Source: a virus. From it: a DNA stretch of 58,108 bases. Positions 1-55,290 of the stretch are shown in pieces. Within the stretch, counting starts at the first letter, position 1; every line of letters starts with the position of its first letter. Position numbers and translations under genes: made by a program. The stretch spans positions 1 through 58,108 of IMG/VR virus record IMGVR_UViG_3300014961_000001. The stretch is one strand, 5' to 3'. The notes under the pieces were generated by a model. The model made no database searches and was not told the DNA's origin. It was given only the letters and a program-made list of their open reading frames with translations.

Positions 1-77
1 ACCTTTAGGCACTCAATTCGATTTTATTCTTCTGATATATTTTGCCAGTCAATAAAAGTGTAGATATTACATAAGTA
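1..77. repeat. Terminal overlap copy 1 (identical to 58032-58108)
   Basis: Direct comparison of the two window ends shows 77/77 identity. Confidence 0.95.
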
Positions 78-2885: not shown

Positions 2886-2906
2886 GCGGAAAAAAGTGAT
2901 CGGTTG

Positions 2907-2979
2907 TGCGCCAGACTGGACTCGAACCAGTGACAAACAGCTTAGAAGGCTGTTGCTCTATCCACTGAGCTACTGACGC
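2907..2979 (-). tRNA. tRNA-Arg (anticodon UCU)
   Basis: The minus strand reads GCGTCAGTAGCTCAGTGGATAGAGCAACAGCCTTCTAAGCTGTTTGTCACTGGTTCGAGTCCAGTCTGGCGCA. Acceptor stem is GCGTCAG/CTGGCGC, the T-arm is ACTGG-TTCGAGT-CCAGT, and the anticodon loop CTTCTAA gives TCT. CCA is not encoded. Confidence 0.85.
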
Positions 2980-9200: not shown

Positions 9201-12200
9201 TCAAGTAGCTGCTGTTTGGTCTGACTAGAAAACTCTGAAACTAAACTCTCCTGGTTATCCATTAAAGCCTTGTACGCTGCTTTTAATTCATCCAGTGTTA
9301 GGCTTTCGTCACCATCGTCTAAACGCTCTGTGACTGCATCAAACTGTTTTCGTACTGCTTCATAGTCACTGGCTTGAGTTTCTTCTACTGGTGGTGCTGG
9401 CTGCTCCGGTTCTATTTTTGCAGAATCAACTTTATAAAGGTTTGGATTCTTTGCCTTTTCAATCGCCAAAATATTAGGATTAAAAGAAAATTGGCCGCCG
9501 CTTTCAGACTGTAGGGTTATTTTAGCCTTCGCTGCTGTGACGATGGTGTATGGCTCATTTGGCAAGGCATAGTCAAATACTTCGCTAAATGTAATCGTAT
9601 CACCCACCTTTAAAACATCATTACTTTGATTTTTTGGCTTTGATTTTCCTTCGTCAGTAATCCAAACAGGTACACCCATGTGACGGCGCACACCGTCCGT
9701 TATGCCTTTGTAGTCTTTACCAATCGCCTTCCATTCTTCCATTGTCATGTGTTCTGCGCTGTCTGGATGAGTAATCCATTCATTGCTTGCGCGTTTTTTA
9801 TTGGCCTTAGCTTCTGCGTCTGCCTTAATTTTGGCCTCCACTTTGGCCTGTTCTGCTGCGTCTTTTTCTGCTTGAGCCTGTGCTTCGGCTTCTGCATCTG
9901 CCTGTTTCTGCTTTGGAGTTCTGGCGGCCAAAACTTTTAATTTTGCATAGCCTTTCAATCGTTCCAGTTCTGCATCAAATTTGGCAGTAGCTTTATCCAA
10001 AGCAGATCCACGCTGATCAGCTTGCTTAGAATTGAAGTTATTGCGTCCAGCTCTCGCCGAACTCACTGTTGCACTGGCTGCATTTAACAACGGCGGTAAT
10101 GCTTCATTAATGTAGCTTTCCTTAACCCAGTTTATAGCGTCATCAAGTGCGGTTTGCTGGGCTTCTGTGGTTGCCAGTGCTTGAGCATCATCAGTTTCAG
10201 CCTGAATAAACTTATCAAATGATTCTTTGAAGGATCTAGCTGTATTGCCAGGCGAAAGGTGTGCATGGCCGTATGCTTCTTTTACTTTATCAATAGGGAA
10301 TGCTAACGGATCTTTAGCCTTCTCCTGGTTTTGCTCTGGCTGTATTGGTGCTGCTTGTGGTTCCTGTGCTTTCAGTGCTTCCTGGGTTTGGCGCAATACA
10401 AAACTTGACGGTGCAAGCTGTACAACCTCATGACTGTTTTCCAAGCCCTGATTTTTTAGTGTCGTGGTTGCTGCTGACTTGTTGGCAAAAGGTTGATTGT
10501 CAGATTTACGTCCAATATCGCCAGATTTCATACCTTCCGGTGCATCATTTTCCTGAATGCCGTTTTCGCTTGTTTTTTGATCATTTACAGTTTTGGCTTC
10601 TGGGTTGATACCCACCCACTCACCACTTGGTTTTTTAACCCCGATAACGCTTACGCTACCATCGTTATTTTTACGGACATTGTAGTTAGGGTTTGATTGT
10701 GCCGATTTAATGGAATCGGGTTTTGAGAACTTAACTTCTTCCCCTTTCTCGATCTTTCCAGCGACTTGCTGAATGGCTGCATCACTTACACCTGACGCAA
10801 TATCAGAAAAACCTTTAGCGATTTGATCTGCTAGGCTTAGTTGTTCTTTCGGTGCTTCTTTTCCTTTTGAACGTGGATTCACTGACTCAATAGCATTTGA
10901 ATCAATAACTACATATTCAGTACGTCCTCGCGGATCTTTACCAACAACTACGCCATAGCCTTGTGAAGTAAGTTCATTAATGTAGTTTTCAGATAAACGA
11001 GTAACATCACCTGACTTGTTTAATACTTTGGTGTTTGGCTTGATCTTTACGTCATATAGGGTAGGTGTTCCGCCCATCATTCCAGCATAGCCTTCCGCTT
11101 GGTTTGCATCTGCCTCACTTGTTCCGTAAAAGCCGCCATAAACTCGGCCTTTTTTACCTTGTTTTTGACCATCAGCACGAATAATCTGAATATTCTCTGC
11201 TTTTAGTTCGCTGTTTCCAGAACCATGAACAATGGTTGTTCCTTTTTCCAGAACTTCGGTTGTACCGTCTGTACGCTCTGGTTGTGCTAATGGCTCTTTT
11301 GACTTACTGCCATTAATCGCCTTCACAATTTCAGTGGCTTCTTTTAAAACATCTTCCCGCGAACGGCCACTATCAATTTCATCATTGATCAATCGTGGTT
11401 TTATTGAAGGGTTGTTTAAGTGAGCGTCACGGAACTTATCCGCAAAACTCAAATTACCAGACGGCGCTGGTTGTTCGGTTTTTGTTTCTGTGTTTTCTGG
11501 TGCTTGGCCATGCCACACGCCATTATCATCACGTACACCAATAACATCAACACTTCCGTCTTCGTTATCTGCAACGTGATAATTTGGATTCTTTTTAGCT
11601 GCTTCGATTGAAGCTGTCTTGAAATACTGAACACGCTTACCCTGTGCAAGTTTTCCTGCTACTTCTCCAATTGCGGCACTAGCAAAAGCATTCCCAAGCG
11701 TGCTGAAAATTCCTGTAATTTGCTCTGCGTTACTTAACTCTCGGTCTTGAAATTCTTGTTTTGGTGCTGTTGGTGGATTGGTAATAGGCGTTCCGATAGG
11801 TGGAACGGCGTTAAGCATGTCATCGAAAGCCTGATCGCTTTCAGGGTCATCAGCCTGTGTTATTGATTTAGGCTGGACAATAATTTGACCTTCACCCTTT
11901 TTAATAATCTCATGGCTATCTTTTAATCCGTTTGTTTTTACGAAATCACTTGCTCTCACATAATTTGTGAAAGTTTTAGGTTTATTGTGGTCTGGCTGTT
12001 TTGTTGGTGTTGGCTGTACTGGTTGTTGTGCTTCCTCTGGATCTAATAAATCAGGCACATTCTCAGGATTTAAGCTATCAACACTGACCATCCCTTCTGA
12101 AAAATTGGATAAATTAGGATCTGCCGGTGTTGGCTGTACAATATTTTTAGGCTTGTAACCAAAGTCGTTTAGGTTCGGATCATCTGGAATGATGCCTTGT

Positions 12201-14383
12201 TTTTTGAAAACAACAATCGTCCCATCTTCTGCAATTTCAATGTCATGTGAATCAGTCAAGCCATTAATACGCACATAATCATTGGCTTTGGCTGCATTAT
12301 GGAACTCTTTAGGCTCGTTAAAATCCTCCTGAAACGGCGATGGTTGATTAGGGTCAATTGGTTCAAAGGTGTTCGGATCTAACTCAGCCGGATTGCTAAA
12401 CAGTCCTCTATCTTGTGGGTGAATCTGCTGCTTAACATGATTATTCACAATACTGGATACAGACGGCTTTTTCGGTGCTTTGGTTTGAGAATAGCGCGTA
12501 ATCGACTGAATAAGCTCTTGCGCCTGGTCTGTGTCGATATTACCCAGTGAAACGGCGTTCATTACCACGTTATGCGCTGCTGCCACATCACCTGTCATTG
12601 TGAGGGTAAATACATCGGCTCGAATAGGGTCTGTCTGAATCGCCTGTGCTTCTTCTGGCGTGATAAACCCATTACTTATGCTATCCATCACCAGATTGGT
12701 GGTGTTTGCCATGCCCTGATTAAATGGGGCTGCTGGTGTTGGTTGTGGCTGTGCTGCTGCCTGTGGTGCTGGTTGCGGTTGTGATGTTGGTTGTGGTTGG
12801 GCTGCTGGTCCCTGTTGTGCGGCTTGTTGCTGCTGTGGTTGGTATTGTGCGGCGAAACGCTGGACAAAATACGGCGTATCAATACCGTACTGGTCATAAG
12901 CTGCTTTAACTTTTGTTGCTTCTGCACCAATATTATTCAGGTTGTCTTGTGCGCTTTGGAGTGCTGCTGGATCGTTAAGCTGCATGGCATCTGCCAGCTC
13001 TTTACGTGCTGCGGCTTCTTCCTGGCGTAACGTGTTAGTCTGGTTGCGTAATTGCTTTGCCGCTTCCTTGGCTTGGCTTGTAGGTGATCCACCAGTAGCA
13101 GACTGCATACCGCCGCCCATGATACCGCCGACCAAACCTTCTTCTAAAATGGTCTTGCCGACCTTGCCATAATCAACCGGTGTACCGCCAATATTGGCCG
13201 ATGCAGCTTGAGCGCCATACTCACCAATACCACCCTGTAAACCTTCCTCTAGGGCCTGTTTACCCACCATTTTGGCCGCTGCTTTGTTGGCTGCAAGACT
13301 TACATCTGGAACCAATTTAGCCATGCCGGTACGTGGGACCTGCTGCAATTCACGCCTAACCAAAGTTGAATCTACACCGCCGCCGAACAGCTTTTTACCT
13401 ATTTGGCTGGTAGGTGCATTTTTCAGGATACCAGATCCAAGGACTGCACCGGACGGCGCAATAAATTCGATTGCAGTCATGGCTGCACCGTATTTATTCG
13501 CGGCCTGTTCTGAAAGTGTATCTAAGGTTTCGGCATGGGCTTGTTGACGTGCCTGATTAATGCTTATGCCGTTGTTTAATTTTTCTTGGAAATTTTGCTC
13601 AAATAAGGGATTACCTTGCAGCTTTTCCCAGGTTGGAAAATCTCGCTCTAAATTGGCTGTGGCATTACGGCGTACTTCGCCATAGTTCTGGGTAAGCCCT
13701 GTGGCTACACCGGCACCAAGACCTAAATAGGGTGCTACTTTTTTAAGTGCTGGAATCTTCCCAGCGGTAGCCACCACGCCTTTAGCCGCGCCAAATGGTG
13801 CAATCATGGCTGGTACGGATTGAATTGCACCAGTAGATAGCTGCGATACCTTTCCATGCTTGCCGGCTTGTAGTTCATTCTGGAAGGTGGAAGCGCTACC
13901 TTCGTATTCTTTTCTAAGGTTTTTACCGTAATTTGCAAGTTTTGCTGAAATAGAATCCCGTTCATTTTCACCAATATCGCGCACAAAGCCAGCTGCACTT
14001 TCAATTGTGCTACCTACGCCCTGTCCAAACAGGTTCCCAATAGTTTCACCAGTAGACACAATGGCTTCTTTGATGATCGGAAAATTACTGCCAGTCTTTA
14101 CGGCTTCTTGATTGGCCTTGTCTGCTCGTTTGTCCTTGGCAAAGCTGCGGCTACTCTGTCCGGCTTTCGGCAATAGTCCAGCACTCTGCATGACCTTATC
14201 AGTCTGTGAGTACCATTTTTCACGTGCCTGAACAATCGCGGTGTCATTTGCACCACGTTTAGTTAGTTCAGGAATCACTTTGTCTTTGAATAGACGTTCA
14301 CGCTGACTGATTAATTGACTTGCATCTGCGCCTTCTGCCGCTGCCTTTGCTGCTAAATTGCTAAAGTGCTGGTTAATATTCAC
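3254..14383 (-). CDS. Giant polyvalent internal virion or ejection protein (3709 aa): N6-adenine DNA methyltransferase, HExxH zincin motif, possible ART-like segment, repeated small modules, C-terminal membrane-spanning region
   Basis: GTG start with a TAAGAGG Shine-Dalgarno. Methyltransferase motif I VLEPSAGMGHI (7331-7360) and motif IV IIMNPPF (6991-7012). HELGGH is at 6452-6481. Hydrophobic segment FAFVWYMGFSAMFGVVNL lies in the C-terminal third. The gene sits next to a lytic-transglycosylase virion protein. Confidence 0.75.
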   Translation of the reverse strand: MNINQHFSNLAAKAAAEGADASQLISQRERLFKDKVIPELTKRGANDTAIVQAREKWYSQTDKVMQSAGLLPKAGQSSRSFAKDKRADKANQEAVKTGSNFPIIKEAIVSTGETIGNLFGQGVGSTIESAAGFVRDIGENERDSISAKLANYGKNLRKEYEGSASTFQNELQAGKHGKVSQLSTGAIQSVPAMIAPFGAAKGVVATAGKIPALKKVAPYLGLGAGVATGLTQNYGEVRRNATANLERDFPTWEKLQGNPLFEQNFQEKLNNGISINQARQQAHAETLDTLSEQAANKYGAAMTAIEFIAPSGAVLGSGILKNAPTSQIGKKLFGGGVDSTLVRRELQQVPRTGMAKLVPDVSLAANKAAAKMVGKQALEEGLQGGIGEYGAQAASANIGGTPVDYGKVGKTILEEGLVGGIMGGGMQSATGGSPTSQAKEAAKQLRNQTNTLRQEEAAARKELADAMQLNDPAALQSAQDNLNNIGAEATKVKAAYDQYGIDTPYFVQRFAAQYQPQQQQAAQQGPAAQPQPTSQPQPAPQAAAQPQPTPAAPFNQGMANTTNLVMDSISNGFITPEEAQAIQTDPIRADVFTLTMTGDVAAAHNVVMNAVSLGNIDTDQAQELIQSITRYSQTKAPKKPSVSSIVNNHVKQQIHPQDRGLFSNPAELDPNTFEPIDPNQPSPFQEDFNEPKEFHNAAKANDYVRINGLTDSHDIEIAEDGTIVVFKKQGIIPDDPNLNDFGYKPKNIVQPTPADPNLSNFSEGMVSVDSLNPENVPDLLDPEEAQQPVQPTPTKQPDHNKPKTFTNYVRASDFVKTNGLKDSHEIIKKGEGQIIVQPKSITQADDPESDQAFDDMLNAVPPIGTPITNPPTAPKQEFQDRELSNAEQITGIFSTLGNAFASAAIGEVAGKLAQGKRVQYFKTASIEAAKKNPNYHVADNEDGSVDVIGVRDDNGVWHGQAPENTETKTEQPAPSGNLSFADKFRDAHLNNPSIKPRLINDEIDSGRSREDVLKEATEIVKAINGSKSKEPLAQPERTDGTTEVLEKGTTIVHGSGNSELKAENIQIIRADGQKQGKKGRVYGGFYGTSEADANQAEGYAGMMGGTPTLYDVKIKPNTKVLNKSGDVTRLSENYINELTSQGYGVVVGKDPRGRTEYVVIDSNAIESVNPRSKGKEAPKEQLSLADQIAKGFSDIASGVSDAAIQQVAGKIEKGEEVKFSKPDSIKSAQSNPNYNVRKNNDGSVSVIGVKKPSGEWVGINPEAKTVNDQKTSENGIQENDAPEGMKSGDIGRKSDNQPFANKSAATTTLKNQGLENSHEVVQLAPSSFVLRQTQEALKAQEPQAAPIQPEQNQEKAKDPLAFPIDKVKEAYGHAHLSPGNTARSFKESFDKFIQAETDDAQALATTEAQQTALDDAINWVKESYINEALPPLLNAASATVSSARAGRNNFNSKQADQRGSALDKATAKFDAELERLKGYAKLKVLAARTPKQKQADAEAEAQAQAEKDAAEQAKVEAKIKADAEAKANKKRASNEWITHPDSAEHMTMEEWKAIGKDYKGITDGVRRHMGVPVWITDEGKSKPKNQSNDVLKVGDTITFSEVFDYALPNEPYTIVTAAKAKITLQSESGGQFSFNPNILAIEKAKNPNLYKVDSAKIEPEQPAPPVEETQASDYEAVRKQFDAVTERLDDGDESLTLDELKAAYKALMDNQESLVSEFSSQTKQQLLDKMHPYYTAMYKSHKKDELVNKWVSNTFRAMDFASGGVVTISYGDKRTMPEIVRDKIEAATQEDLNKYLEEQRQAKIQREKDLEAAEAGMNDPKTMDDFKRIYANGDFKDFKDFYRSLTIPQQALYDELKSDAYNEQRMQEIERNKAYREASNPSHAVESTTEATLFAGKHTKKGTDIWTVTLNGRVDGDAFNDYRSQAKGLGGYYSSYKGGGAVPGFIFDNEATANEFLNLVTGDHEAKSTDPEPEAIAVDPQAEVEVIETDAKRQADKLREKAQAVIDRGEQNINRDRKTNTAKRAGDAARAEERANSAIFLGETLNRIADGIENGSVKYLSRLGAMTQLSHLESLLQRASYDQQRETNAKEREITATTIAYAEFPQYKTWTDSFNNIRSDLKAANPRLAEKLEKTIGIRYHNAYARWLNETNEFGTENYVGQLARKSDGSPAVFKTNIKQAETLVKASNKRAGKDSFEVFKIKNGEYAVISSYETAMENGSWKPTNSDKQMTLTNEFGSELYNALRQYKRKNPSYYMNWLIESMHDSVSRMEKLGIHDPATFRAAMREYLSLRSKEKANDPIKEMERSMIGRSNDGLDFFPTPRNVVEQMIEMADLDSDMKVLEPSAGMGHIADVLKDHGIKPDVIELSGKRQDLLKLKGYSVVGNDFLMFDPKNRAPNYGDVFKTADGKYQGVMRGSGSLGSNRVRLMREDDGQMITYFDRDELELVKMNGINYDRIIMNPPFSDRRDAAHIYHAFDLLADDGVMVAIAGEGVFFGKDKAAKEFQDWLDQVGAEITPLDAGTFNDPSLPVTTGVKARIIKINKADSSGKRFSRSEDLNQVPAHVKENTSGSTPNQIRTELVNRFGEDTIQQLEQKGILSIVPTHTEQGVEGFAENGRVTLIADAITAENIVPVFLHELGGHVGMQGVLKASAYDNLMSEFNRLVKSGNPDAIEAKRLAERESDAQVQADEYLPYLITVAARNQQNQGPAQKLISRVLSAVKAWAVDKLGLNLKLNSNDMVALAERMIKTISKGTPPTPPKGERRYSRSSTANPQNMSRSKQRELLDKAASTAFGQLSLRGAEASKTLSNRTLNLFQTMLHKSLRDETGQFKKTFDLVQGKINHVTFASSKSMDVAPSILTQLEEGGDYWKEVKRVGRTMGHTLSGGKIDKAKVDKDLKKIGDLMFENTLLDNSERHTVKELKQLGFDDDQIGLYNEIRDAIDTSLDTFANTTFSNIYKHLGGTNEEVLELAGQDLDITDHYNEILKRIDTLTKGKPEKSEARQAAIEAVDRVFKKANDLKDQGYVPLMRFGKYFVRIWNPTTGEVSYRQHFESESERNIYFRDQEKKGNLPPGTVLEKGQINELQYKLFQGVSPETVALFAKESGLPIGDAETAYIKYAVQNNHALKRLLKRQGIDGFDTDVKRVLASFVMSNARYSANQSYNPAIDESITNIEDPAFQEDAIRLRDYSLDTQEELAAVKNFAFVWYMGFSAMFGVVNLTQPLLQTLPYLMQYSKDHNTIFKAMGKAITTWAKGTDAMDSKYKAHYERARKEGHLDPQNTWMMQGLERGKSGLGASTWQLVSHASGLFAQASETVNRRTSLFAALDVAESLGQTKLEQLGFKDAYDFAVRTIQETQGIYNKGNRPRVSRGNVGSVLMMYKQFMIAYIEQMVRMQKSGLYGGEDDEFKKKMAALVGFGVSRSVLTMLGILMALSGTTGLPFVRDILDGIETAGGLVGKPVNTEREIQIALHDALGQTMGSAVNTALMDGIVNLNPLIDVKGRMGMGDLIPATAYFSPTTSDYMKSSEISQIAGPIGGLLEKVKESVALAQVGAYGQSGVQLLPKAITSVGQGAIAATTGDYRNMKTGVKTNDVTPWEGVIKILDAQPASIAKEGRVRGYEMKDKSAQTYVNARWKERYVNALESGDRTQVRTVKQEIREYNKSNPRYPVKFNQKLAETNFKKSNQSWQEKRKTVKGLEWMSEYNPYLDQ
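6889..7432 (-). other. N6-adenine DNA methyltransferase domain within the giant protein
   Basis: DFFPTPRN, VLEPSAGMG (SAM-binding motif I), then NPPF (motif IV). The order I then IV fits gamma-type amino-methyltransferases. Confidence 0.75.
10890..11250 (-). other. Possible H-Y-E ADP-ribosyltransferase-like segment within the giant protein
   Basis: IVHGSG (His at about residue 1053), GGFYGTS about 30 aa later, and RTEYVVID about 103 aa after the His. This resembles the PARP or diphtheria-toxin HGS, Y, E-Y-hydrophobic layout. Judged by eye only. Confidence 0.3.
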
Positions 14384-19304: not shown

Positions 19305-22300
19305 TTATTGAATCTCAATTGGATCTTCATCCCACTCACCAATATAAATAATGGGGGTTTCATCGCTATCAAAAAAAGTGAGTAAATTCCCCTTAAATTC
19401 AAGTCTTGCACCAGTATCGGCGGTTCTAAGGTGGCCAATTTTTGCAGTAATTGCACCCAAATTATCAAATTGACCATCTACCGCTTCCACAATATTAGCC
19501 TTCATGCGGTCTGCGGCAATATCGCCAGATGTAATCTTGTCTGCGGAAAGGTTGCCAACATGGGCATTGGCAATACTACCGTCTTTAATGACGGCGGTAT
19601 TAATGATCGTTCGCCCATCACTGTCAATTACAAACGGTACGGCGACCTGGCCATCTGGACTAACCACACTAAAGCGATTAGTTAGAACGATGAAGTCTGA
19701 TTCTGCTCCCGTGGTGCCTAGACTCACCCCGGATACCCTGCCACCGGCTTGAACTTTTATTTTCCATTCAGCATTGATCCCATCAACGGCGGTCTTGGTT
19801 TCCTGAATAGACGATGTATGGCCGTCTACTGTTGTTTGTACAGTTTCAATTGTTTCGGACAAAGCACTATCTGCACTTGCTCTGGTTGTTGCTTCTTGTT
19901 GTATTGCTGCTGAAATATCATCACCAAACTTCGTCTGTAGTGTGGTTATTTGCTGTGCAAGCGCATCATCTTTACTAATTCTGGCTTGTGATTCGGTTTG
20001 AATTGCAGATGTGGCTGCGGTAGCCTTTTCGTCAGTGCTGCTTATTTCGGCTTGGAGTGTGGTGACTTGCTCTGCCATAGCGCTATTTTGATCGGTTCTT
20101 ACCCTTGATTCCTCTTGAATGGCGGCAGTTATATCATTATTTACCTTTGCTGAAAGTGTGGTGACTTGCTCGGCAAGTGATTCGTCCCCCAAAGCTCTTA
20201 CTCTGGATTCTTCCTGTATAGACGCGGCTATGTCATTGTTCACTTTTGCAGATAGTGTTGTGACCTGCTCTGCTAGAGATTCATCTGCGGCAGTTCTTAC
20301 TCTTGATTCTTCTTTGATTGCAGCATCAATATCATTGTTTACCTTCGCTGAAAGGGTTGTAACCTGTTCAGCAAGTGCTGAATTTTCAGTAACCCTTACG
20401 CTTGATTCTTCTAGGATTAAAGCGCGTACCTGCTTCTTCTCACTATCAAATTCAGCAATTAAACCGTCTGTGCGTTGGGATTGTATTAGATCTCCTTCGA
20501 TACGTGCGCTCTGTTCGGTCCAAGCACCAGCCAGTTTTGATTGATCGCCGGCAAGGTTATCATCCCCGGCCATCTCAGGATTCACTTGAGCAAATACACC
20601 GTCCAGTTTTGTGGATAACGCACCTGTTTCGGTGGCTCTAGTTTCTGCCTCTTCGGTGATTAAGCCTCTAATCTCCGTGTCATTTGTTGCGTACTCAGCA
20701 ACAAATGTATCAATACGTCCAGATAAAGCACCTGTTTCATCCGCCCTGGTATTTGACTCTGTGGTAATTAACCCTCTAATCGCAGTGTCTTTTAAGGTGA
20801 AATCAGAAATAACCGTGTCAATGCGGCTGGCTAAAACACCTGTTTCATCAGCTCTCGTTTGAGATTCGGTTGAGATTAGTCCTCTGACGGCAGTATCTTT
20901 TAATGCAAATTCAGATGCTATATTGTCAATACGGCCAGACAACGCCCCTGTTTCTGTAGCTCTGGTATTTGACTCTGTGGTGATCAACCCCCTAACTGCT
21001 GTGTCCTTCAATGTAAAGTCTGAAATCACACTATCGATTCGACCAGCTAAAGCACCGTTTTCATCAGCTCTGGTTTGAGATTCGGTTGTGATCAGCCCCC
21101 TAACCGCTACATCCTTTAAATTCAGATCAGAAATAACGGTATCAATACGTCCAGATAAGGCACCAGTTTCATCAGCTCTGGTTTGAGATTCGGTTGTGAT
21201 CAACCCTCTAACAGCTGTATCGTTTATGGCGAAATCTGAAATCACACTATCAATGCGTCCTGCCAGTGATTCGGTTTCAGTGGATCTAGCATTGGTTTCG
21301 GTCAGTACGGCTGCTGAAATATCCTTTCCGACCTGAGTGTAAAGCTGGGTGATTCTATTGGCTGTGGCTTCGTTCTCGGTGGCCCTGGTCTGAGATTCAT
21401 TTGTAATTAAGCCTCTAACCGTAGTGTCCTTTAATTGAACCTCTGCAACTAGATCATTAATCTGTTTTGTTGTTGCTTCATTCTGGCTGGATCTTACTGT
21501 TGCTTCATTGGTAATTAAGCCCCGGATAGCCGTGTCGCTTGTTGCAAAGTCGGTGATTACACTATCAATGCGTTCAGCTGTAGCTTCGTCTGCTGTCGTT
21601 CTGGCTTCTTGTTCGGCCTGAATTAAGGCTCTTATATCACTATCACTATTTTTCAAACTTGCTGATACGGACGCAATCTCTGTTGCTAGTGCTTCATTCT
21701 CGCTGGCTCTAGTGGTTTGCTCCTGAGTAATCAGCGCTTTGGTTTGGGTGTCATTAATTTCAATCACAGACTGGACGGTATCAATACGCTGTGATAATGC
21801 CATATCTCCTTCGATACGTGCGCTCTGTTCGGTCCACACGCCAGCCAGTTTTGATTGATCGCCAGCAAGGTTATCATCCCCGGCCATCTCGGGGTTCACT
21901 TGAGCAAATACACCGTCCAGTTTTGTGGATAATGCACCTGTTTCGGTGGCTCTGGTTTCAGCTTCTTCGGTGATTAGTGCTGTTAAATTTTGATTATTTG
22001 TGTTTACGGTTGCAGATAATGTACTTATATCGCCAGCAAGTGCTTCATCTTGAGTTGTTCTTGCGGTTTGTTCCGCATAGATTGCAGCTGAAATATCATC
22101 ACTGACCTTGGCTGATAGCCCTGTGATCTGTTGGGTTAGTGCTTCATTCTCTGTCGCTCGTGCCTGTTGCTCCGCTGTAATCAGGCTCTTAACTTCGGAA
22201 TCATTTAAGGCAACCACGGCGCTAAGTGCTTCTGTTTTTTCGGCATTGGTTTGATCTGCGGTGACTCTGGCTGTTTGTTCTGCCTGAATTGCAGCTTCAT

Positions 22301-25199
22301 TCTCCCCAACGGATGCAGACATTAAGTTTATCTGCTGCGTAAGTGCATTATCCCGTTCAGTTCTGGCAGTTTGCTCTTGAGTAATAGCGGCTGCATTACT
22401 CTCCGTTCTGGCCTCAAGTAAACTGGCTCTCTCTGCTAAAACCCGATTGGCTTCGGCTGAAACACTTGACGAATCTAAAATCAATCCTTTGTAGATCTGA
22501 TCGTTATTAGTTACGGTTGCAGACAGTGATGCAATAGCATTGGCGTTAGCCCTGTCTGCTGTAGCTCTAGCTTGCTGTTCTTCTGATAAGGCAGAATATG
22601 ATGCAGACGGCGAAGGTCTGCCAATTGCCACCCAATCAATAAAGAAGTAGTTATCAGGATCTTGGCTACTTAAAAACTTAATCTTGATTTGGTTGATGTC
22701 ACCCATCCAAGCAATATCGGCTTGAACTAGACTGATATTACTCATATCCCATGCTGGTTCTGGAATGATGTGGCTTTTGCTAAAGTTCTCACCATAAAGC
22801 AATACACCATCCCAGACAGGTTCCCCGACCTTCTTAATCCTGGTTCTGAAATACGGATAGGTTGATCCACTTACACCTTCCAGCACTGGACTGATTAAAA
22901 AATTCTCTGCTGTGCTATCTGCTGCACGTATATAGCCATTCTCAACAATGGGTACACCTGTTTGGCTGGTCCAGCCCTCTACACCTTCATCAAAAAACCA
23001 GATTTCTTTTGTATCAAATTGCTCACCCACGCCAGCACTAATAAAAGTCATCTCTCTGGATAGGGATTCAATCTGGCTGGTTCTGACTTCCTGCTCCTCC
23101 GTAATTAGTCCAAACAAGTCATTGCTTTTACTGGTTAGTGTTTCAATCTGTCCTGCAATCGCTCCGTCTGCTGTTGTTCTGGCAATCTGCTCTGCTGTGA
23201 TTGCAGCTTCATTGGCATTAGATTTGACGACCAGTGTGTCTATACGCTGAGATAATGCACCATCCTCTGTTGCTCTTGTATTGGCCTCTGCGGTGATTAA
23301 TGCACGTGTGTCTGTGTTGTTCTTGGTTATTGTGGCAGACATGGTTGTGAGCTGGTTGGTGGTTGCTTCGTCTGCGGTAACTCTAGCCTGTTGCTCTTGG
23401 GTGATCAGTGCCTTGGTTGCGCTGTCATTTGACTTAATTTCAGCAATAACCGTGTCAACACGTTGTGACAGGACAATATCCCCTTCGATACGTGCATCCG
23501 CTTCGGTCCATACTCCAGCGGCCTTATCGCTACCAGCAAGGCTATCGTCACCTGCCATGCTTGGGTTTACTTGTGCAAAAACTCCATCCAATTTAGTGGA
23601 AATGGCTTCGGTTTCTGTGGCTCTTGCTTGGGATTCGGATGTGATCAGTGCTTTGACATTGGTATCATTTGTACTGACGGTGGCTGATAGTGCATTTATA
23701 TCATTTGCTAGCGCTGTTGTTGCTGTGGATCTGGCCTGCTGCTCAGCTGTGATTAATGCTTTAACATTGGTGTCATTGGTTGATACTGTTGCAGCCAATA
23801 GCCCTACTGTTTCAGTTGTAGCTTCATCTGCTGTAATTCTTGCTTGTGTTTCATCGAAAATTAAACCACGTAGCGTTGTATCGTTGGCCGCTACTGTACC
23901 GGTGACAATCCCAATCTGCTGGATAAGCTTTTCATCTTCGGATTGTCTGACAACCTGTTCCGCATAGACAGCCTGGTCTATTGCTTCTGCTCTGGCTTGT
24001 GCTTCTGCCAGTATTTCATCCTGTCTAATTGTTGCTTCATTCTGGATTGCTGCTGCCCTTGCGGTTTGCTCTGCGGCCAGCGCAAGACTAGACACTAAGG
24101 CTGATTCTGCAATTTGCTGCTGTCTGGCTGTTGCTTCTGCCTGTATTTGGGTATTTCTAGCTGCTGCTTCTGCACCCACTCGTGTTGTAATACTTAACTC
24201 AACACGCTCAACTTCCGTGGTTCGTGCCAAGGCTTCGGCAGTAATGTCTAGTTGTCGTTGCTCTCGTTCTGTCTGCAACTTTTGATTGAAAGCAAGTGTG
24301 GTGTCTGAAATAGCTTTTGCCCTATCTGCAACCTCGCTTGCAATTGACTGTGTTAATGATGAGATAGCATCAGATCTAATCGCTGCTTCATTTGCGATAG
24401 CTGTGGCTCTTGCATTAGCCTCGTTTGCAAGCGCAACTGCTCTTGCTGTGGCTTCTGCTGCAATATCTCTTACCCTTGCAGCTGATTCACTGGCAATAGC
24501 TTCAGCTCTTGCTGCTGCTTCATTAGAAATAGCAGAGGCTCTGGCTAAAGCCTCTGCCGCAATAGCCTTGGCATTGAGTTCAATTCTGGCAATTTCCGTT
24601 TTAAGGGACTGGGTAAACTGAGATGCGTTAATTTTGTCTGTAAGCTGCTCTAACAGGTACGCAATGTCGATACTGGTTTCAGCATACACAGACGGCGCAA
24701 GTTGACCTTCTACGCCGTACTTGCTGATAGTTCTTACCCAGTAATATGCTTTGATGCCATTACCAACATAATCTGTATAAACATCCCCTAGAGTAGATCC
24801 AATCTGAACTGCTAACCCAAAATCATTTGTTTCAGATCTGTAGACAGCATTATGCCCAAAGACTTGGCTGGCTGGAGTTTCAAAGGATAGAGTTACAGAA
24901 CTGTATGCACCACTGGCTACAAGGTTTAATACCATATCTGGTACAGTTGGGCTGTACTCCGGGTCTTTTGGTATCAGTGATTCCAGATTGCCGTTATTAA
25001 ATTTAACCAGGCCAATATCAACCAAGTCGCTTTTTGTGACTGATTTTTTAATAGCGGTCTGAACGGCAGAATCAATACTCTTGATCCATGTCTGTAGTGT
25101 TGCATCCTCTACCGCTGGAATAGCGGCTGTGGTTGTCTTGGTTTTTTTTAAAACCTGGGAAAGCTGCCGGTTATTCCTAATCTTGTTTAAAAGGCTCAT
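19305..25199 (-). CDS. Long coiled-coil tail fibre or host-specificity protein (1964 aa) with tandem repeats
   Basis: The N-terminal FN3-like YYWVRTISKYGVEG and the C-terminal segment AEWKIKVQAGGRVSGVSLG...FIVLTNRFSV resemble J-type host-specificity ends. The centre holds dozens of heptad-like N-D-T-x-(K/R)-x-L-I-T-x-E-x-x-x-R repeats. Confidence 0.7.
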   Translation of the reverse strand: MSLLNKIRNNRQLSQVLKKTKTTTAAIPAVEDATLQTWIKSIDSAVQTAIKKSVTKSDLVDIGLVKFNNGNLESLIPKDPEYSPTVPDMVLNLVASGAYSSVTLSFETPASQVFGHNAVYRSETNDFGLAVQIGSTLGDVYTDYVGNGIKAYYWVRTISKYGVEGQLAPSVYAETSIDIAYLLEQLTDKINASQFTQSLKTEIARIELNAKAIAAEALARASAISNEAAARAEAIASESAARVRDIAAEATARAVALANEANARATAIANEAAIRSDAISSLTQSIASEVADRAKAISDTTLAFNQKLQTEREQRQLDITAEALARTTEVERVELSITTRVGAEAAARNTQIQAEATARQQQIAESALVSSLALAAEQTARAAAIQNEATIRQDEILAEAQARAEAIDQAVYAEQVVRQSEDEKLIQQIGIVTGTVAANDTTLRGLIFDETQARITADEATTETVGLLAATVSTNDTNVKALITAEQQARSTATTALANDINALSATVSTNDTNVKALITSESQARATETEAISTKLDGVFAQVNPSMAGDDSLAGSDKAAGVWTEADARIEGDIVLSQRVDTVIAEIKSNDSATKALITQEQQARVTADEATTNQLTTMSATITKNNTDTRALITAEANTRATEDGALSQRIDTLVVKSNANEAAITAEQIARTTADGAIAGQIETLTSKSNDLFGLITEEQEVRTSQIESLSREMTFISAGVGEQFDTKEIWFFDEGVEGWTSQTGVPIVENGYIRAADSTAENFLISPVLEGVSGSTYPYFRTRIKKVGEPVWDGVLLYGENFSKSHIIPEPAWDMSNISLVQADIAWMGDINQIKIKFLSSQDPDNYFFIDWVAIGRPSPSASYSALSEEQQARATADRANANAIASLSATVTNNDQIYKGLILDSSSVSAEANRVLAERASLLEARTESNAAAITQEQTARTERDNALTQQINLMSASVGENEAAIQAEQTARVTADQTNAEKTEALSAVVALNDSEVKSLITAEQQARATENEALTQQITGLSAKVSDDISAAIYAEQTARTTQDEALAGDISTLSATVNTNNQNLTALITEEAETRATETGALSTKLDGVFAQVNPEMAGDDNLAGDQSKLAGVWTEQSARIEGDMALSQRIDTVQSVIEINDTQTKALITQEQTTRASENEALATEIASVSASLKNSDSDIRALIQAEQEARTTADEATAERIDSVITDFATSDTAIRGLITNEATVRSSQNEATTKQINDLVAEVQLKDTTVRGLITNESQTRATENEATANRITQLYTQVGKDISAAVLTETNARSTETESLAGRIDSVISDFAINDTAVRGLITTESQTRADETGALSGRIDTVISDLNLKDVAVRGLITTESQTRADENGALAGRIDSVISDFTLKDTAVRGLITTESNTRATETGALSGRIDNIASEFALKDTAVRGLISTESQTRADETGVLASRIDTVISDFTLKDTAIRGLITTESNTRADETGALSGRIDTFVAEYATNDTEIRGLITEEAETRATETGALSTKLDGVFAQVNPEMAGDDNLAGDQSKLAGAWTEQSARIEGDLIQSQRTDGLIAEFDSEKKQVRALILEESSVRVTENSALAEQVTTLSAKVNNDIDAAIKEESRVRTAADESLAEQVTTLSAKVNNDIAASIQEESRVRALGDESLAEQVTTLSAKVNNDITAAIQEESRVRTDQNSAMAEQVTTLQAEISSTDEKATAATSAIQTESQARISKDDALAQQITTLQTKFGDDISAAIQQEATTRASADSALSETIETVQTTVDGHTSSIQETKTAVDGINAEWKIKVQAGGRVSGVSLGTTGAESDFIVLTNRFSVVSPDGQVAVPFVIDSDGRTIINTAVIKDGSIANAHVGNLSADKITSGDIAADRMKANIVEAVDGQFDNLGAITAKIGHLRTADTGARLEFKGNLLTFFDSDETPIIYIGEWDEDPIEIQ
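20640..21290 (-). repeat. About six tandem 105-bp (35-aa) repeats inside the fibre gene
   Basis: The protein repeat ETGALSGRIDTVISDFxLKDTAVRGLITTESQTRAD is iterated. The DNA periodicity is visible in lines 20641-21300. Confidence 0.8.
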
Positions 25200-26888: not shown

Positions 26889-26916
26889 ATAAAAAAAGGC
26901 GCTGGTTAGAGCGCCT
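26889..26916 (-). terminator. Intrinsic terminator closing the DGR cassette
   Basis: Minus strand: aggcgct-ctaacc-agcgcct followed by tttttttatt. Confidence 0.75.
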
Positions 26917-26931
26917 TTAATTTGGTGGTGT

Positions 26932-27375
26932 TTAGAGTGTTAGTGCTTGCGACCAAATCTCATCAATTTGAGATGAAGATAACCCCATCAGCGCTGCCAT
27001 TACGAAAAGACTGCTATTATTTCGCTCAAACACCGTAGCATCCTGCCATTCGATTTGAATAATTTGACGCTGCATATCATCTTCGATTTGATTAATAAGC
27101 GCTTCAATATCAGCAAGAGCAAAGCCATTCATGACAAGTGCTAATCGGAATTGACGGCGTGTTAGTGGTTTTAATGGCGGTTTTTCGTAGGTGACTGCCC
27201 ACACGTAATCAGGGTTGAATTGCGATAGTGCGTTTAGGATCTTTCCCTTGTCGCAATTGAGGTCTTTGATTAGATCCACAACACCATCCATATTGGGTGT
27301 AATTGTGCATCCATCTTGTGTGACTTCTAGCTGGTGAATCTCTGCGCCGTTTCGGTTTGATACAAGCTTAAGCAT
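26932..27375 (-). CDS. Hypothetical 147-aa protein translationally coupled to the DGR RT
   Basis: Its ATG overlaps the RT stop (TAATG). No family was recognised. It could be a fibre chaperone or a DGR accessory protein. Confidence 0.55.
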   Translation of the reverse strand: MLKLVSNRNGAEIHQLEVTQDGCTITPNMDGVVDLIKDLNCDKGKILNALSQFNPDYVWAVTYEKPPLKPLTRRQFRLALVMNGFALADIEALINQIEDDMQRQIIQIEWQDATVFERNNSSLFVMAALMGLSSSQIDEIWSQALTL

Positions 27376-28463
27376 TAGGTTAAATCCTCTATTTTGGGTA
27401 ATAAAACAGTAGTGGTTGTGTTCTTGTCCTCTTGTCTAACAAAAACAGCCTTGTTGAGTATTGATTTTCGCAAGCCTAGACTGTCTGCGTGAGAAGCATG
27501 TGCAAGCCAAGAGTTAATGGATGCCTGGATGCGCTTTGCCTCAATCCTGCCCTCGTTGTACTGTTTCTTCATAAACCTTATTTTTCGGTAAATTCTAGAA
27601 ATTGAGCTTTTTCTTACACGTCGATGAGTGGGCCACATTTGATAGCCAAGGAAATCCAATGCTCGTCCGTTCTTGACGGACACTGGAAATATTTGTGTTT
27701 TTGCATTGGTTTGGAGCTTTAGCTTCTCAAATAGGAATCGCTCTACATCAATGCGTAAATGACGCAAGTGATCCTTGTTGTGATGAAAGATACAGAAGTC
27801 ATCCATATATCTCAGATAGTGCTTCTCACATAGTCGGTATTTGACATACTCATCCAGCTCATGCAGATATATGTTTGCAAATAGCTGTGATGTTAGGTTG
27901 CCGATAGGTATTCCAACACCGCCACCGGATGATTCTATGATGTCGTCAATCAGGGTAAGGAGTTGTTTGCATGATATTTTCTTTCTGATCAGGCTTTTCA
28001 TGATCTCATGATCAATACTGTAGAAGAATTTGGATATATCTGCCTTGAATGCGTATAAAACGCCATGGTTTCTTAGTACCTTTTGCATCATGCGTTGTGC
28101 TTGATCTGCGCCAACATGCGTACCTTTATTAACTCGGCAAGCATAGCTGTCGTCAATAAATCGTTTTTCCCAGATGGGTTCAATAACCAGCAAAATAGCG
28201 TGCTGTACGACCCTATCCCGAAATGGAAGTGCTGCAACATCGCGCTCTTTAGGTTCGTATACTTTGAAAATTCGATACTCACCTGTCTTGTACGTTCCCC
28301 AGATCAATTCGTTCTGTAATTGAATCAGGTTTTCTTCCAGATTTAATTCAAACTTTAAGACTTCACGCCGATCACGCTTGCCGCGCCGGGCCTTCAAATA
28401 TGCGTTATACAAATTTTCAAAGTCGTAAATCTGACTAAACAGATTGTTGTATGTAATTGCCAT
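27375..28463 (-). CDS. DGR-type reverse transcriptase (362 aa)
   Basis: RT motifs FRDRVVQHA, FKADISKFFYSIDH, IPIGNLTSQLFANIYL (the IGxxxSQ signature of DGR RTs) and RYMDDFCIF (YxDD). TR lies immediately upstream. Confidence 0.9.
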   Translation of the reverse strand: MAITYNNLFSQIYDFENLYNAYLKARRGKRDRREVLKFELNLEENLIQLQNELIWGTYKTGEYRIFKVYEPKERDVAALPFRDRVVQHAILLVIEPIWEKRFIDDSYACRVNKGTHVGADQAQRMMQKVLRNHGVLYAFKADISKFFYSIDHEIMKSLIRKKISCKQLLTLIDDIIESSGGGVGIPIGNLTSQLFANIYLHELDEYVKYRLCEKHYLRYMDDFCIFHHNKDHLRHLRIDVERFLFEKLKLQTNAKTQIFPVSVKNGRALDFLGYQMWPTHRRVRKSSISRIYRKIRFMKKQYNEGRIEAKRIQASINSWLAHASHADSLGLRKSILNKAVFVRQEDKNTTTTVLLPKIEDLT

Positions 28464-28619
28464 GTATATCTCAAAATAAAAGCGGCATAAGTTTTCGCAA
28501 ATTGCTACTCAGCTATGCCGCCTGTTTAGTTTTTTAGATTTTCATCTAAGGAGTGTGCATCCTTTTAAAGTGTTCTGTCCTAATCCCCATTAGGGATTAA
28601 GCTTCTGACACGCTCTAAG

Positions 28620-28731
28620 AGCTGGACGCGCCCCGATATTCGTATTCGTGTTCGAACGAGCGTTATTCAAGTTCAAGGCGAACACGCCAGCATTGGCTGC
28701 GTTGTTCCAACTGCCGCCACGGATGGGAAGG
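28620..28731 (-). repeat. DGR template repeat (TR)
   Basis: A 112-bp match to VR at constant offset +564. In frame it encodes an AAC/AAT-rich stretch: LPIRGGSWNNAANAGVFALNLNNARSNTNTNIGARPA. Confidence 0.9.
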
Positions 28732-28754
28732 GACCGTCGTTGTAACGCACACCC

Positions 28755-29099
28755 CTATTTGCCTACGGCAAATACTTTGATCCAGCCGCCTACCATGCGG
28801 CCAATCTCATTGTTCAGTCTGGACCAGTGTTCATACTTCTTAAAATCAAGATAGCCTAATTCTTTTGAAATTCGAACCTGAGCGCGTAATAGGTCTAGCT
28901 CTGCGTCTAACTCTTGTAGTGTGGTTTTTTTGTGGTAGCGCTTATTACAAACAACAATCAACCTCAATATCCCCCACATGACCTGCCTCATTTCTGCTGC
29001 AAGCACATGCTTTTCAAATTTTGGAAATTGACGTAATGCGATATAGCCATAGGCAATCATTTCTTCGCATTTTTGTCTGATTAATAAATCACTAGACAC
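28755..29099 (-). CDS. avd: Accessory variability determinant (Avd), 114 aa
   Basis: Small basic helical protein between the target gene and TR. The C-terminal EIGRMVGGWIK resembles Bordetella phage Avd EVGRILGSWI. GTG start. Confidence 0.8.
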   Translation of the reverse strand: MSSDLLIRQKCEEMIAYGYIALRQFPKFEKHVLAAEMRQVMWGILRLIVVCNKRYHKKTTLQELDAELDLLRAQVRISKELGYLDFKKYEHWSRLNNEIGRMVGGWIKVFAVGK

Positions 29100-29128
29100 A
29101 ATAAATCTCTACAAAACAAAATTAAGAA

Positions 29129-29146
29129 CGTGCGCTATCGCGCACG
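29129..29146 (-). promoter_or_regulatory. GC-rich hairpin or cruciform downstream of VR (7-bp stem, 4-nt loop)
   Basis: cgtgcgc-tatc-gcgcacg, 23 nt past the target-gene stop codon. The position is analogous to the homing-enhancing hairpin of BPP-1-type DGRs. Confidence 0.6.
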
Positions 29147-29168
29147 CATACAGATAACACAAGACAGA

Positions 29169-30554
29169 TTACAGATTAACGAAAGCTGGACGCGCCCCGA
29201 GATACGTACCCGAGCTCGAACGAGCGTTACTCAAGTACAAGGCGAACACGCCAGCACCGGCTGCGCTGTTCCAACCGCCGCCACGGATGGGAAGGCGCTC
29301 ATCAGTCATTGCTTTGAAGAAGTAATCACCGTTATATGAAGCGGTATTTTCAGTATGCGGATATAAACACAATGCTTTCAGTCGAGCTAAAGCTGCCGCA
29401 GTCACAGGCTTGGTTGTTGACAGGTTTCGGATACCGCCAAAATTAGACCCATTAATTGTGTAGTCTGCTGTGCCGCCATCAGCATACTTGATTGTGCCTG
29501 CCGTGGTTCCGCTGCCGTCCGGTGTGACCAGGTTGCCAGTTTCACCATTAATCGCTTTCCATTCAGTAGAAGCCGCACCAAGATCAATCGCTAGTTTTGA
29601 CGCATTATTGTCTGCAATAACCTGGATTTCACCGTTAAAAATACGCATTCCAGAATTCCATTCCCATACATTACCGGATAAATCAGCAATGCCGTTTTCT
29701 TTACCGTTGTGTCGCCACTCAACTGGGCTAGATCCAGTTAATGTGCGTGCTGACCCAGATGTATCACCCGGATTTAAGCCGTCCGCCCTGCGACCGATCA
29801 GCAATGGATTTTCTGAGCTTCGGCCATAGTATGTATTACCCATTGGCTGTTTATTATCTTTGTAGCATTGCAAGGCCACGGCGCTCCATTCAGCATTTGT
29901 GATCAAGTGATGACCATTGCCACACGCTCGTGCTGCTGCAAGAAAGTTTGTGTAGTTGGTGCTGTGCGTTGGTTCTACGTTTGGCAGACTGAGCAACTCA
30001 CCATTAACGATTCGACCCTGGTATGTCCCAATGAAGATTTCAGGCTTTTCCACACCGTCCACAATAAATGCCGGGTGTGTACCACTTAATGAAGCATCAA
30101 TCGTACTCATATCGTACTTTTGAATGATGTTCATGTAGGTGGGCTGGCCTTTAGCCGTGTATAAAACTGTCTGCAATCCACCGCTTGCTACCTCTACCGA
30201 TTGACGCAATGAGTCTTTGATCAGGATTGTTAATCCATTGGATGAGTTGGCAATTGCTGCCGCTTGTAGGGTACTGACTGGTTTATCGGTGTCAGATGTG
30301 TTGTTTACACTACCTAATCCAAGGTTTGATCGTGCCGTAGCTGCTGTGGTGGCACCCGTACCACCATTCGCAACAGGCAGGCCGGAAGCTGGCAAGACAG
30401 CGCCTTCTGCCCCACTATTCGCGCTATTTAAGACAGCACCCATTGCCTTATAGAGTTCAGTAAAGTTTGCATCCCACTTGGTGTTTGCGGATCTGTTTGT
30501 GTCACCGCCAACGCCCGAAGGAGCTATACCTGGTTTGAAGCTTTGTCTAGCCAT
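29169..30554 (-). CDS. DGR target protein: tail-fibre or receptor-binding protein with C-terminal C-type-lectin/FGE-sulfatase-like variable domain (461 aa from ATG 30554)
   Basis: N-terminal fibre motifs GGTGATTAATARSNLGLG and NTSDTDKPVS. C-terminal GNVWEWNSG and RGGGWNSAAGAGVFALYLSNARSSSGTYLGARPAF, ending 5 codons before the stop. The track start at 30581 is a TTG inside the terminator T-tract. Confidence 0.85.
   Translation of the reverse strand: MARQSFKPGIAPSGVGGDTNRSANTKWDANFTELYKAMGAVLNSANSGAEGAVLPASGLPVANGGTGATTAATARSNLGLGSVNNTSDTDKPVSTLQAAAIANSSNGLTILIKDSLRQSVEVASGGLQTVLYTAKGQPTYMNIIQKYDMSTIDASLSGTHPAFIVDGVEKPEIFIGTYQGRIVNGELLSLPNVEPTHSTNYTNFLAAARACGNGHHLITNAEWSAVALQCYKDNKQPMGNTYYGRSSENPLLIGRRADGLNPGDTSGSARTLTGSSPVEWRHNGKENGIADLSGNVWEWNSGMRIFNGEIQVIADNNASKLAIDLGAASTEWKAINGETGNLVTPDGSGTTAGTIKYADGGTADYTINGSNFGGIRNLSTTKPVTAAALARLKALCLYPHTENTASYNGDYFFKAMTDERLPIRGGGWNSAAGAGVFALYLSNARSSSGTYLGARPAFVNL
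29184..29295 (-). repeat. DGR variable repeat (VR)
   Basis: It differs from TR at 12 positions, all TR adenines on the coding strand. Its 3' end carries the GC-rich GGGGCGCGTCCAGC shared with TR (IMH-like), after which the two sequences diverge. Confidence 0.9.
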
Positions 30555-30565
30555 TTCTTTATCCC

Positions 30566-30591
30566 AAAAAAAAGCAGCCAATTAAGGCCGC
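30566..30591 (-). terminator. Intrinsic terminator or attenuator just upstream of the DGR target gene
   Basis: Minus strand: gcggcc-ttaatt-ggctgc (one G-U pair) followed by eight T residues. Confidence 0.6.
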
Positions 30592-30611
30592 TTATGTTGA
30601 TTCGTTACTGG

Positions 30612-55155: not shown

Positions 55156-55290
55156 GTCAAAGAATTGTCCCTATGGAAATACCCTGTCAAAGAATTGTCC
55201 TTAACCAGTCAAAGAATTGTCCCTACCCTGTCAAAGAATTGTCCCTACCCTGTCAAAGAATTGTCCTTAACCGGTCAAAGAATTGTCCCT
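55156..55290. repeat. Origin iterons: six copies of gtcaaagaattgtcc(c/t)t
   Basis: The copies start at 55156, 55186, 55208, 55230, 55252 and 55274. The last five lie on an exact 22-bp register. A degenerate seventh copy (15/17) is at 55552-55568. An AT-rich region at 55380-55720 follows. Confidence 0.9.

Follow-up and report, generated by a model that had tools for sequence, protein, structure and literature searches.

The window analysed here is the whole stretch of 58,108 nucleotides that makes up IMG/VR virus record IMGVR_UViG_3300014961_000001, and positions 26932-30554 on its minus strand very probably constitute an intact diversity-generating retroelement (DGR) of the BPP-1/VHML type, from an active family. 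The element is a canonical DGR in which all defining features open to testing in silico were found. An earlier note on this DNA, made from the sequence alone, had described a complete DGR at 27375-30554 with the order target, avd, template repeat (TR), reverse transcriptase (RT). Its completeness is borne out by mismatches between the TR and the variable repeat (VR) that fall on adenines only, an Avd protein, an RT of the DGR clade, a structured spacer RNA, a repeat end resembling an initiation of mutagenic homing (IMH) element and a hairpin, and the order is indeed that of BPP-1. The interval encloses the DGR parts and omits a linked gene, orf147 (26932-27375). The target is identified as a receptor-binding fibre with less confidence than the DGR is identified as intact, and maintenance as a plasmid is proposed with less confidence again.

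The TR (28620-28731, minus strand) and the VR (29184-29295, minus strand; codons 421-457 of the 461 in the target gene) were located by a direct-repeat search and an exact comparison as the one 112-nt direct repeat found, with a spacing of 564, 89% identity and no gaps. The 12 mismatches lie at plus-strand TR positions 28637, 28640, 28645, 28646, 28649, 28651, 28666, 28673, 28693, 28694, 28702 and 28712, and at each of them the TR carries a plus-strand T, hence A on the coding (minus) strand. Mismatches affect 12 of the 25 TR adenines and none of the 87 other positions (eight A>G, three A>T and one A>C); the probability that 12 of 12 random mismatches would fall on TR adenines is 1.2e-9 (hypergeometric). 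The earlier note had these coordinates, the offset, the length and the mismatch counts exactly right, along with the translations of TR (LPIRGGSWNNAANAGVFALNLNNARSNTNTNIGARPA) and VR (LPIRGGGWNSAAGAGVFALYLSNARSSSGTYLGARPA), and the mismatches at non-adenine positions that it had named as grounds for doubt are absent from the exact alignment. It had set the VR five codons before the stop of the target gene; the distance is four codons (FVNL).

Nine AAY codons and five codons with a single amino-acid-changing adenine make 14 recodable codons in the TR, with a theoretical repertoire of ~3.9e13 peptides, and mutation of any adenine codon cannot reach a stop codon. A stop-free, AAY-rich TR is paired with a VR at the C-terminus of a variation-tolerant target, as is characteristic of DGRs. 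A search of the window found no third repeat copy, second VR or remote target. At TR position 28712, in the codon for target residue 427, the window has AGT where seven close relatives have AAT, a difference that leaves this codon with 4 possible residues in place of 15.

The window was compared with 11 IMG/VR loci whose RTs are 78-99% identical to its own, giving 12 loci in all. Seven of the 11 relatives share a TR that is one base off the window TR, and the VR is different in all 12 loci. The TR is near-constant throughout, and 139 of the 144 pooled TR/VR mismatches fall on TR adenines, so that the VR alleles which the earlier note had proposed to seek in related replicons are in fact hypervariable at the TR-adenine positions. 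The VRs of two relatives (L013 and L018) have one isolated T>G each at a non-adenine TR position, probably ordinary point mutations; the other non-adenine differences are confined to a frayed 5′ edge of the most diverged relative (L020).

At the protein level, 815 homologues of the target were found at E<=1e-20, several of them from Acinetobacter haemolyticus and A. johnsonii. Among the best 120 of the 815, ten AAY/AGT codon positions have 12-15 residue types each within an almost invariant intervening framework, and the 14 non-synonymous adenine codons have an average entropy of 2.71 bits, versus 0.28 for other VR codons (Mann-Whitney p=2e-7). Within three clusters formed at 90% identity, all 14 adenine-codon positions vary, with 5-6 residue types among ~15 members, while the remaining 340 target positions have a mean of ~1.1 residue types. 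Taken together, variability among ~160 homologues stays within the 14 adenine codons. This pattern appears to be the signature of ongoing mutagenic retrohoming in the DGR family. The window VR is identical in an NCBI protein from a 56.8-kb contig of an A. johnsonii metagenome-assembled genome (MAG), and an identical target protein was found on a wastewater metagenome contig. A search of genome contigs with the RT returned relatives of <=41% identity in unrelated MAGs, which are uninformative for VR comparison, and a DNA-level search with the cassette against phages and plasmids returned short or distant matches only.

The RT (27375-28463, minus strand, 362 aa) contains the motifs IGNLTSQ and YMDD, reported by the earlier note as IGxxxSQ and YMDD; the DGR RT signature is [I/V/L]GxxxSQ (PMC7826257). 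Its best match among solved structures is 8ub7, checked as the Brt protein of BPP-1 (E 1e-65, 225 bits), whereas group II and 'retron-type' RT structures score ~75 bits, and by these motifs and structure-match scores the enzyme belongs to the DGR clade. It also matches phrog_1423 (E 2.4e-148). The alignment with Brt shows that residue R74 and the motif isoleucine (in IPIGxLTSQ) are kept; they correspond to R74 and I181 of bRT, which have been shown experimentally to promote adenine mutagenesis (PMC7826257). The accessory variability determinant encoded by avd (28755-29099, minus strand, 114 aa) scores 123.2 bits with NCBIfam NF033474 (DivGenRetAVD), for which the curated equivalog cut-off is 80, and 118.8 bits with Pfam bAvd, and matches phrog_3206, 'Avd protein of DGR'; an accessory protein of the kind that adjoins the TR of a DGR (Avd or HRDC) is accordingly in place.

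A plain duplication or gene conversion with random differences, next to an RT that is an unrelated retron, group II or defence enzyme, would be another way to account for the repeats, and the top NCBIfam match of the RT is indeed a group II RT/maturase model (group_II_RT_mat, 145.9 bits). A group II intron RT was rejected as a candidate: that score is far under the cut-off of 300, and the motif is IGxxxSQ, not QGxxxSP. The retron_St85 model scores 54.6 against a cut-off of 235, the Drt2-5 models are all far under their cut-offs, the score with BPP-1 Brt is three times that of any group II RT, and no group II intron or retron RNA was found by Rfam in the window. The RT thus shows no membership of the group II, retron or defence RTs, nor the grouping with retron or group II enzymes that the earlier note had considered damaging to its case. 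The A-only pattern of mismatches recurs in 11 more loci, and both Avd and a DGR spacer RNA accompany the repeats. The A-only mismatches, the RT scores and the related loci already refute an origin by duplication beside an unrelated RT, which is left with practically no probability.

Between the TR and the RT gene lies a structured spacer RNA (28480-28621, minus strand, 142 nt), as expected of a DGR. It begins at the 3′ end of the TR and matches Rfam RT-14 (RF02921) with 77.4 bits against a gathering threshold of 48.1; a second, weak match is to Phage_DGR (RF03022, 27.8 bits). Compensatory changes were found at 12 of its 39 predicted pairs among 10 related loci. In BPP-1, a 140-nt spacer directly 3′ of the TR holds the cDNA priming site (bioRxiv 10.1101/2023.10.23.563531), and the RNA of the window is the positional equivalent of that Sp RNA. 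A literature search found no papers on RT-14 in the context of diversity-generating elements; here RT-14 is assigned a role, that of the TR-RT spacer of a DGR.

The cis-elements associated with homing, an IMH-type GC-rich end and a hairpin with a GRNA loop, are both present. The GC-rich, IMH-like 3′ end of the VR (GGGGCGCGTCCAGCT; 29184-29198, minus strand) consists of the same 15 nt that end the TR at 28620-28634, and TR/VR homology ceases right after it. The earlier note had likened the two repeat ends to IMH and IMH*: it was right that both end GC-rich and then diverge, and a distinct IMH/IMH* mismatch pattern is not visible. In L020 (9178-9400 and 9738-9849), the TR and VR ends are both GGGTCCCG, compared with GGGGCGCG. 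The hairpin or cruciform (29128-29147, minus strand) has a GC-rich stem of 7-8 bp and a 4-nt GATA loop, which fits GRNA. Its DNA fold has an energy of -10.2 kcal/mol (z -2.95, with none of 200 shuffles as good), it is kept in 12 of 12 loci, and its stem in L020 has changed in a compensatory manner from GCGC/GCGC to GCGT/ACGC around an unchanged GATA loop. Published DGR target-recognition hairpins have a GC stem of 7-10 bp and a GRNA loop and lie 4-34 bp from the VR (PMC3240598); the window hairpin, ~36 nt downstream of the VR, is just beyond that range. The hairpin also scored as terminator-like and is followed by a T-rich tract, and it may serve to terminate transcription of the target gene as well.

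It is very unlikely that the window holds a fossil, that is, a copy that no longer diversifies, from a family active once or now, whose 12 A-mismatches record past events. The sequence itself gives no measure of current activity, the AGT of the window TR in place of the AAT of seven relatives indicates that TRs of this lineage drift, and the VR is identical in the independent record HRM29176.1, though that record may come from the same sample or assembly. On the other side, the open reading frames (ORFs) are all intact; YMDD, IGNLTSQ and R74 are kept; and Avd, the spacer RNA, the GC-rich end and the hairpin are as intact as those of active-looking relatives. Relatives with 99% identical RTs each have a different VR, so inactivation would have to be very recent. 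Two points nevertheless count against an intact and active DGR: the window copy could be a recently silenced member of an active family, and TR and VR have no recognisable likeness past the 15-nt GC-rich end, such that a BPP-1-style IMH/IMH* pair was not found there.

The anatomy, the family assignments and the adenine-specific natural variation are matters of observation, and the biochemical steps that would connect them are modelled on BPP-1 by homology. In an intact DGR of this type, a complex of RT and Avd would bind an RNA that covers the TR and the 142-nt spacer. Synthesis of cDNA would be primed inside the spacer and would copy the TR faithfully at C, G and U, placing random nucleotides opposite adenines. 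The cDNA would then replace the VR at the 3′ end of the target gene, guided by the shared GGGGCGCGTCCAGCT end and the downstream hairpin with its GRNA loop, and the predicted result is that 14 codons for the ligand-binding face of a C-type-lectin (CLec) domain are recoded.

The target gene (29169-30554, minus strand) encodes a variable protein of 461 aa from an ATG at 30554. Residues ~108-461 form a body of CLec/FGE-sulfatase type, and residues 1-107 form a tail-fibre-like N-terminal adapter that is specific to the phage backbone. The body aligns with PDB structure 5VF4 (TaqVP) over residues 109-366 (51% identity over 254 aa, E 5.5e-82) and again over residues 391-459 (50% identity over 66 aa), a stretch that includes the VR and places it opposite the C-terminal segment of TaqVP. 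TaqVP is a DGR variable protein of Thermus aquaticus with a C-type-lectin fold (10.1101/432187). The match to Pfam FGE-sulfatase (24.4 bits) is just over the cut-off of 23.3, the motif GNVWEWNSG noticed by the earlier note is present, and the lectin-type target which that note proposed is confirmed by the identity to TaqVP. The protein matches phrog_2889; its N-terminal part matches tail-fibre PHROGs, and the N-terminal ~107 aa also match a segment of the solved 'putative tail fiber' chain 7z47. Homology to TaqVP suggests that the variable residues are placed on one face, the ligand-binding face, of the CLec domain. Two terminator-like hairpins (30572-30593 and 26895-26918, both minus strand) flank the cassette on both sides. 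The former stands between the p190 gene and the target start, and because it intervenes, the ATG at 30554 is favoured over an upstream TTG at 30581.

Comparison with relatives indicates how the target is put together. In the plasmid pTG31986 (NZ_CP039342), which is collinear with 33 of the 48 window ORFs, the four cassette genes (orf147, RT, avd and target) are missing, and the homologues of the 557-aa and 190-aa genes that flank the cassette lie side by side; in the window, ~3.7 kb of cassette lies between these two genes, and the target gene sits after the gene of virion protein p190. In another relative, L017, a cassette with an 87% identical RT lies in the tail operon of a lambda-like siphovirus, between gpM-like and gpL-like genes, after the tape-measure gene and before K-, I- and J-like genes. 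DNA homology of the window with L013, L017 and L019 extends from ~30230 (target codon ~108, 'LTILIKDSLRQSV') to exactly 26932, the stop of orf147. Because the homology has these limits, the mobile unit consists of the CLec body, avd, TR, spacer, RT and orf147. On this comparison the cassette appears to be a portable module, shared by a podovirus-like phage-plasmid and lambda-like siphoviruses.

The gene at the end of the unit, orf147 (26932-27375, minus strand), has a start that shares 1 nt with the RT stop, and the gene directly follows the RT in every close relative (L003, L011-L017, L019, L020 and L025). Its only full-length match is phrog_14311, a family of unknown function, and no Pfam match was found even at E<=10. 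All 120 of the 120 homologues among the matches listed are at least 80% identical, too shallow a set for a structure model. A core DGR role for orf147 is unsupported, because its C-terminal domain (residues 68-147) also occurs in DGR-less Flavobacterium, Sinorhizobium, Curvibacter and Acinetobacter phages. One idea, offered tentatively and less likely than not, is that the 3.3-kb unit from target codon ~108 to the orf147 stop is a self-contained, exchangeable 'plug-in' module for receptor diversification, one that recombines into unrelated virion architectures with a swap of just the ~107-aa adapter. On this idea orf147, which is translationally coupled to the RT, may be an obligate partner that has gone unrecognised, acting either in the assembly or attachment of the fibre or as an accessory of retrohoming. 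Carriage on a plasmid, if that plasmid is multicopy, could also let several VR alleles coexist in one lysogen.

As judged from its sequence context, the target most likely serves the phage as an accessory tail fibre or in receptor binding. What counts against that role is that it is read from the position of the gene in the virion module and from N-terminal matches that are weak, and that the backbone has, besides the target, a candidate main fibre of 1964 aa. An AlphaFold2 model of the target, built on an alignment of 34 sequences, was discarded (mean predicted local distance difference test score 31, predicted template modelling score 0.16), and the placement of the variable residues on one face therefore draws only on homology to TaqVP.

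Targets of chromosomal DGRs are in many cases something other than phage fibres, and the DGR could be real while its target is some other lectin, virion-associated or expressed by the lysogen, for example a protein related to the cell surface or to superinfection, in which case host range would not be diversified. The sister plasmids, which have no DGR, are presumably viable as phages in the absence of the target, and the backbone has the very large candidate fibre of its own. A non-fibre target is unlikely all the same. The gene lies between virion structural genes in both contexts, after p190 in the window and, in L017, between the genes for the minor tail proteins that resemble gpM and gpL. 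The first ~107 aa of the target are exchanged together with the backbone, as would be expected of an adapter for virion attachment, and they match tail-fibre PHROGs and the 7z47 segment. Finally, homologous CLec targets are annotated beside tail genes in VP58.5 and VHML.

The resemblance of the element to the DGR of BPP-1 is close. The order of target, avd, TR, spacer and RT is that of mtd-avd-TR-brt, the RT is 40% identical to Brt, Avd is present, mismatches are A-only, the VR is at the extreme C-terminus of a tail protein with a CLec fold, a hairpin lies downstream of the VR, and the gap from TR to RT is 156 nt in the window versus 144 nt in BPP-1. The differences are in detail. The TR has 112 nt in the window and 134 in BPP-1; the window target has a CLec fold of the FGE-sulfatase/TaqVP subtype, and the sequence search did not bring up Mtd. 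The IMH and IMH* of BPP-1 share a further 21 bp with a few mismatches, an extension past the GC-rich end that is not recognisable in the window. The hairpin is ~36 nt from the VR in the window and within 24 bp directly downstream in BPP-1, the spacer RNA scores strongly with Rfam RT-14 and weakly with the Phage_DGR model, the window has orf147 as an extra linked gene, and its host is probably a plasmid-prophage, whereas BPP-1 is an integrating phage.

Among Vibrio systems, VP58.5 and p0908 have RTs with 51-52% identity to that of the window and VHML has one with 44%, and the CLec bodies of the VP58.5 and VHML targets are 34% identical to that of the window target. The order target-avd-TR-RT is found in all three, and the TR/VR repeats of VP58.5 and p0908 are 116-117 nt long, with 12 of 12 and 11 of 12 mismatches, respectively, on TR adenines. 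No homologue of orf147 was found after the RT in VP58.5/VHML or p0908. According to a citation of Zabala 2009 in PMC10612081, VP58.5 is a linear plasmid prophage; p0908 is a circular Vibrio plasmid with phage genes. These systems differ from the window in having myovirus-type or telomere-phage backbones in Vibrionaceae, instead of a podovirus-like circular Rep3/iteron replicon in Acinetobacter. Because VP58.5 and p0908 have the same architecture, a complete DGR on a phage-plasmid is not new in kind, and the earlier note overstated the matter when it singled out the replicon context as the notable point. The closest solved relative of the target, TaqVP, is a bona fide DGR target with which it has the segment ...RLPIRGG.W....AG..ALYL.N.R......GARPAFV in common; TaqVP is chromosomal and non-phage and lacks the fibre-like adapter, the additional 107 N-terminal residues of the window target.

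The host of the DGR is most likely a podovirus-like temperate Acinetobacter phage with an N4-gp56-type capsid, similar to Bcep22 and PEp14. Its gene set is that of a phage (capsid, portal, terminase, adaptor, virion proteins and CHAP), and the structural module is podovirus-like, with an N4-gp56-type capsid, a P22-type portal, an SU10-type adaptor and a giant protein of 3709 aa. The capsid protein is 71% identical to those of five ~55-kb circular A. baumannii plasmids and ~40% to those of Bcep22/PEp14-type phages. The genes collinear with pTG31986 include those for the capsid (71% identical), the terminase (80%), the portal, the giant PLxRFG protein, Rep, ParA, the short recombinase and a CI-like repressor. 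The 3709-aa ORF (3254-14383, minus strand) is a homologue of the PLxRFG-domain giant protein of pTG31986. The 1964-aa ORF (19305-25199, minus strand) is Ala/Thr-rich and full of 99/108/216-nt tandem repeats; it is probably a swapped main fibre, because only a single segment of 183 aa matches the 3049-aa fibre-like counterpart in pTG31986.

Functions for plasmid replication and partition are encoded as well. A Rep3-family replication initiator (53749-55077, minus strand; Pfam Rep3_N 73 bits, Rep3_C 41.5 bits) is 39% identical to RepB of pTG31986, and just upstream of rep are five to six 22-bp tandem iterons (55156-55297) with the core GTCAAAGAATTGTCCCTA. A ParA-type partition ATPase (1051-1713, plus strand; Pfam CbiA, AAA_31 and MipZ; phrog_164, ParA-like) is followed by a small ORF that overlaps the end of parA (1694-2077, plus strand) and may encode a ParB or centromere-binding partner; the two are 57% and 44% identical to collinear pTG31986 genes. 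A CI/LexA-like repressor is encoded on the replicon. The ends of the window (1-77 and 58032-58108) are an exact 77-bp direct overlap, which yields a circular assembly of 58,031 bp and is compatible with either a plasmid or a circularly permuted phage genome. A tyrosine recombinase (261-842, plus strand; Pfam Phage_integrase 95 bits) is 63% identical to the 195-aa 'site-specific integrase' of pTG31986; its 193 aa fall short of the usual length of a phage integrase, and it may act instead in multimer resolution.

From these genes and the relatives, the element is probably maintained as a circular Rep3/iteron/ParA plasmid, and the phage-plasmid described by the earlier note agrees with the Rep3 gene, the 22-bp iterons, ParA, the circular assembly and the collinearity with pTG31986. 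What speaks against plasmid maintenance is that it is deduced from gene content and relatives, and that integration may still be possible given the tyrosine recombinase. The alternative would be an ordinary temperate phage, circularly permuted or integrating, in which rep and par serve lytic replication only and the circular assembly reflects terminal redundancy. The tyrosine recombinase speaks for such a phage, permuted virion DNA also gives rise to an assembly overlap such as the one of 77 bp, and the closest records of the exact element are metagenomic. An ordinary phage is nonetheless quite unlikely: Rep3, adjacent 22-bp iterons and ParA are the classic set for low-copy plasmid maintenance, A. 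baumannii genome records include five collinear relatives as circular plasmids of ~55 kb, and the recombinase has just 193 aa. 'AB-like' phage-plasmids of A. baumannii are moreover a recognised group (bioRxiv 10.1101/2022.06.24.497495).

The plasmid pTG31986 has no DGR, no Acinetobacter plasmid in PLSDB matched the window RT at E<=1e-40, and literature searches that combined DGR with phage-plasmid or with Acinetobacter found nothing on the window element, only incidental co-mentions. The window adds a cleanly documented and apparently active DGR to the Acinetobacter phages and to the AB-like phage-plasmid lineage of a clinically important genus. New in detail are the occurrence of a DGR in that lineage, RT-14 as a DGR spacer RNA and the boundaries of the module across virion types; the understanding of DGR mechanism is unchanged. 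A single cassette with a defined junction in the target gene, found in both podovirus-like and siphovirus-like phages, could be useful for engineering of Acinetobacter host range and for the study of DGR spread.

Two other features of the replicon were noted. A tRNA-Arg gene (anticodon TCT) lies at 2906-2979 (minus strand), beside the partition region. At 51925-52620 (plus strand), adjoining a gene for a Sak4-like annealing protein, an exonuclease-like protein is encoded that matches phrog_192 (DNA polymerase exonuclease subunit) and has a C-terminus matching Pfam QSregVF_b, 'putative quorum-sensing-regulated virulence factor'.

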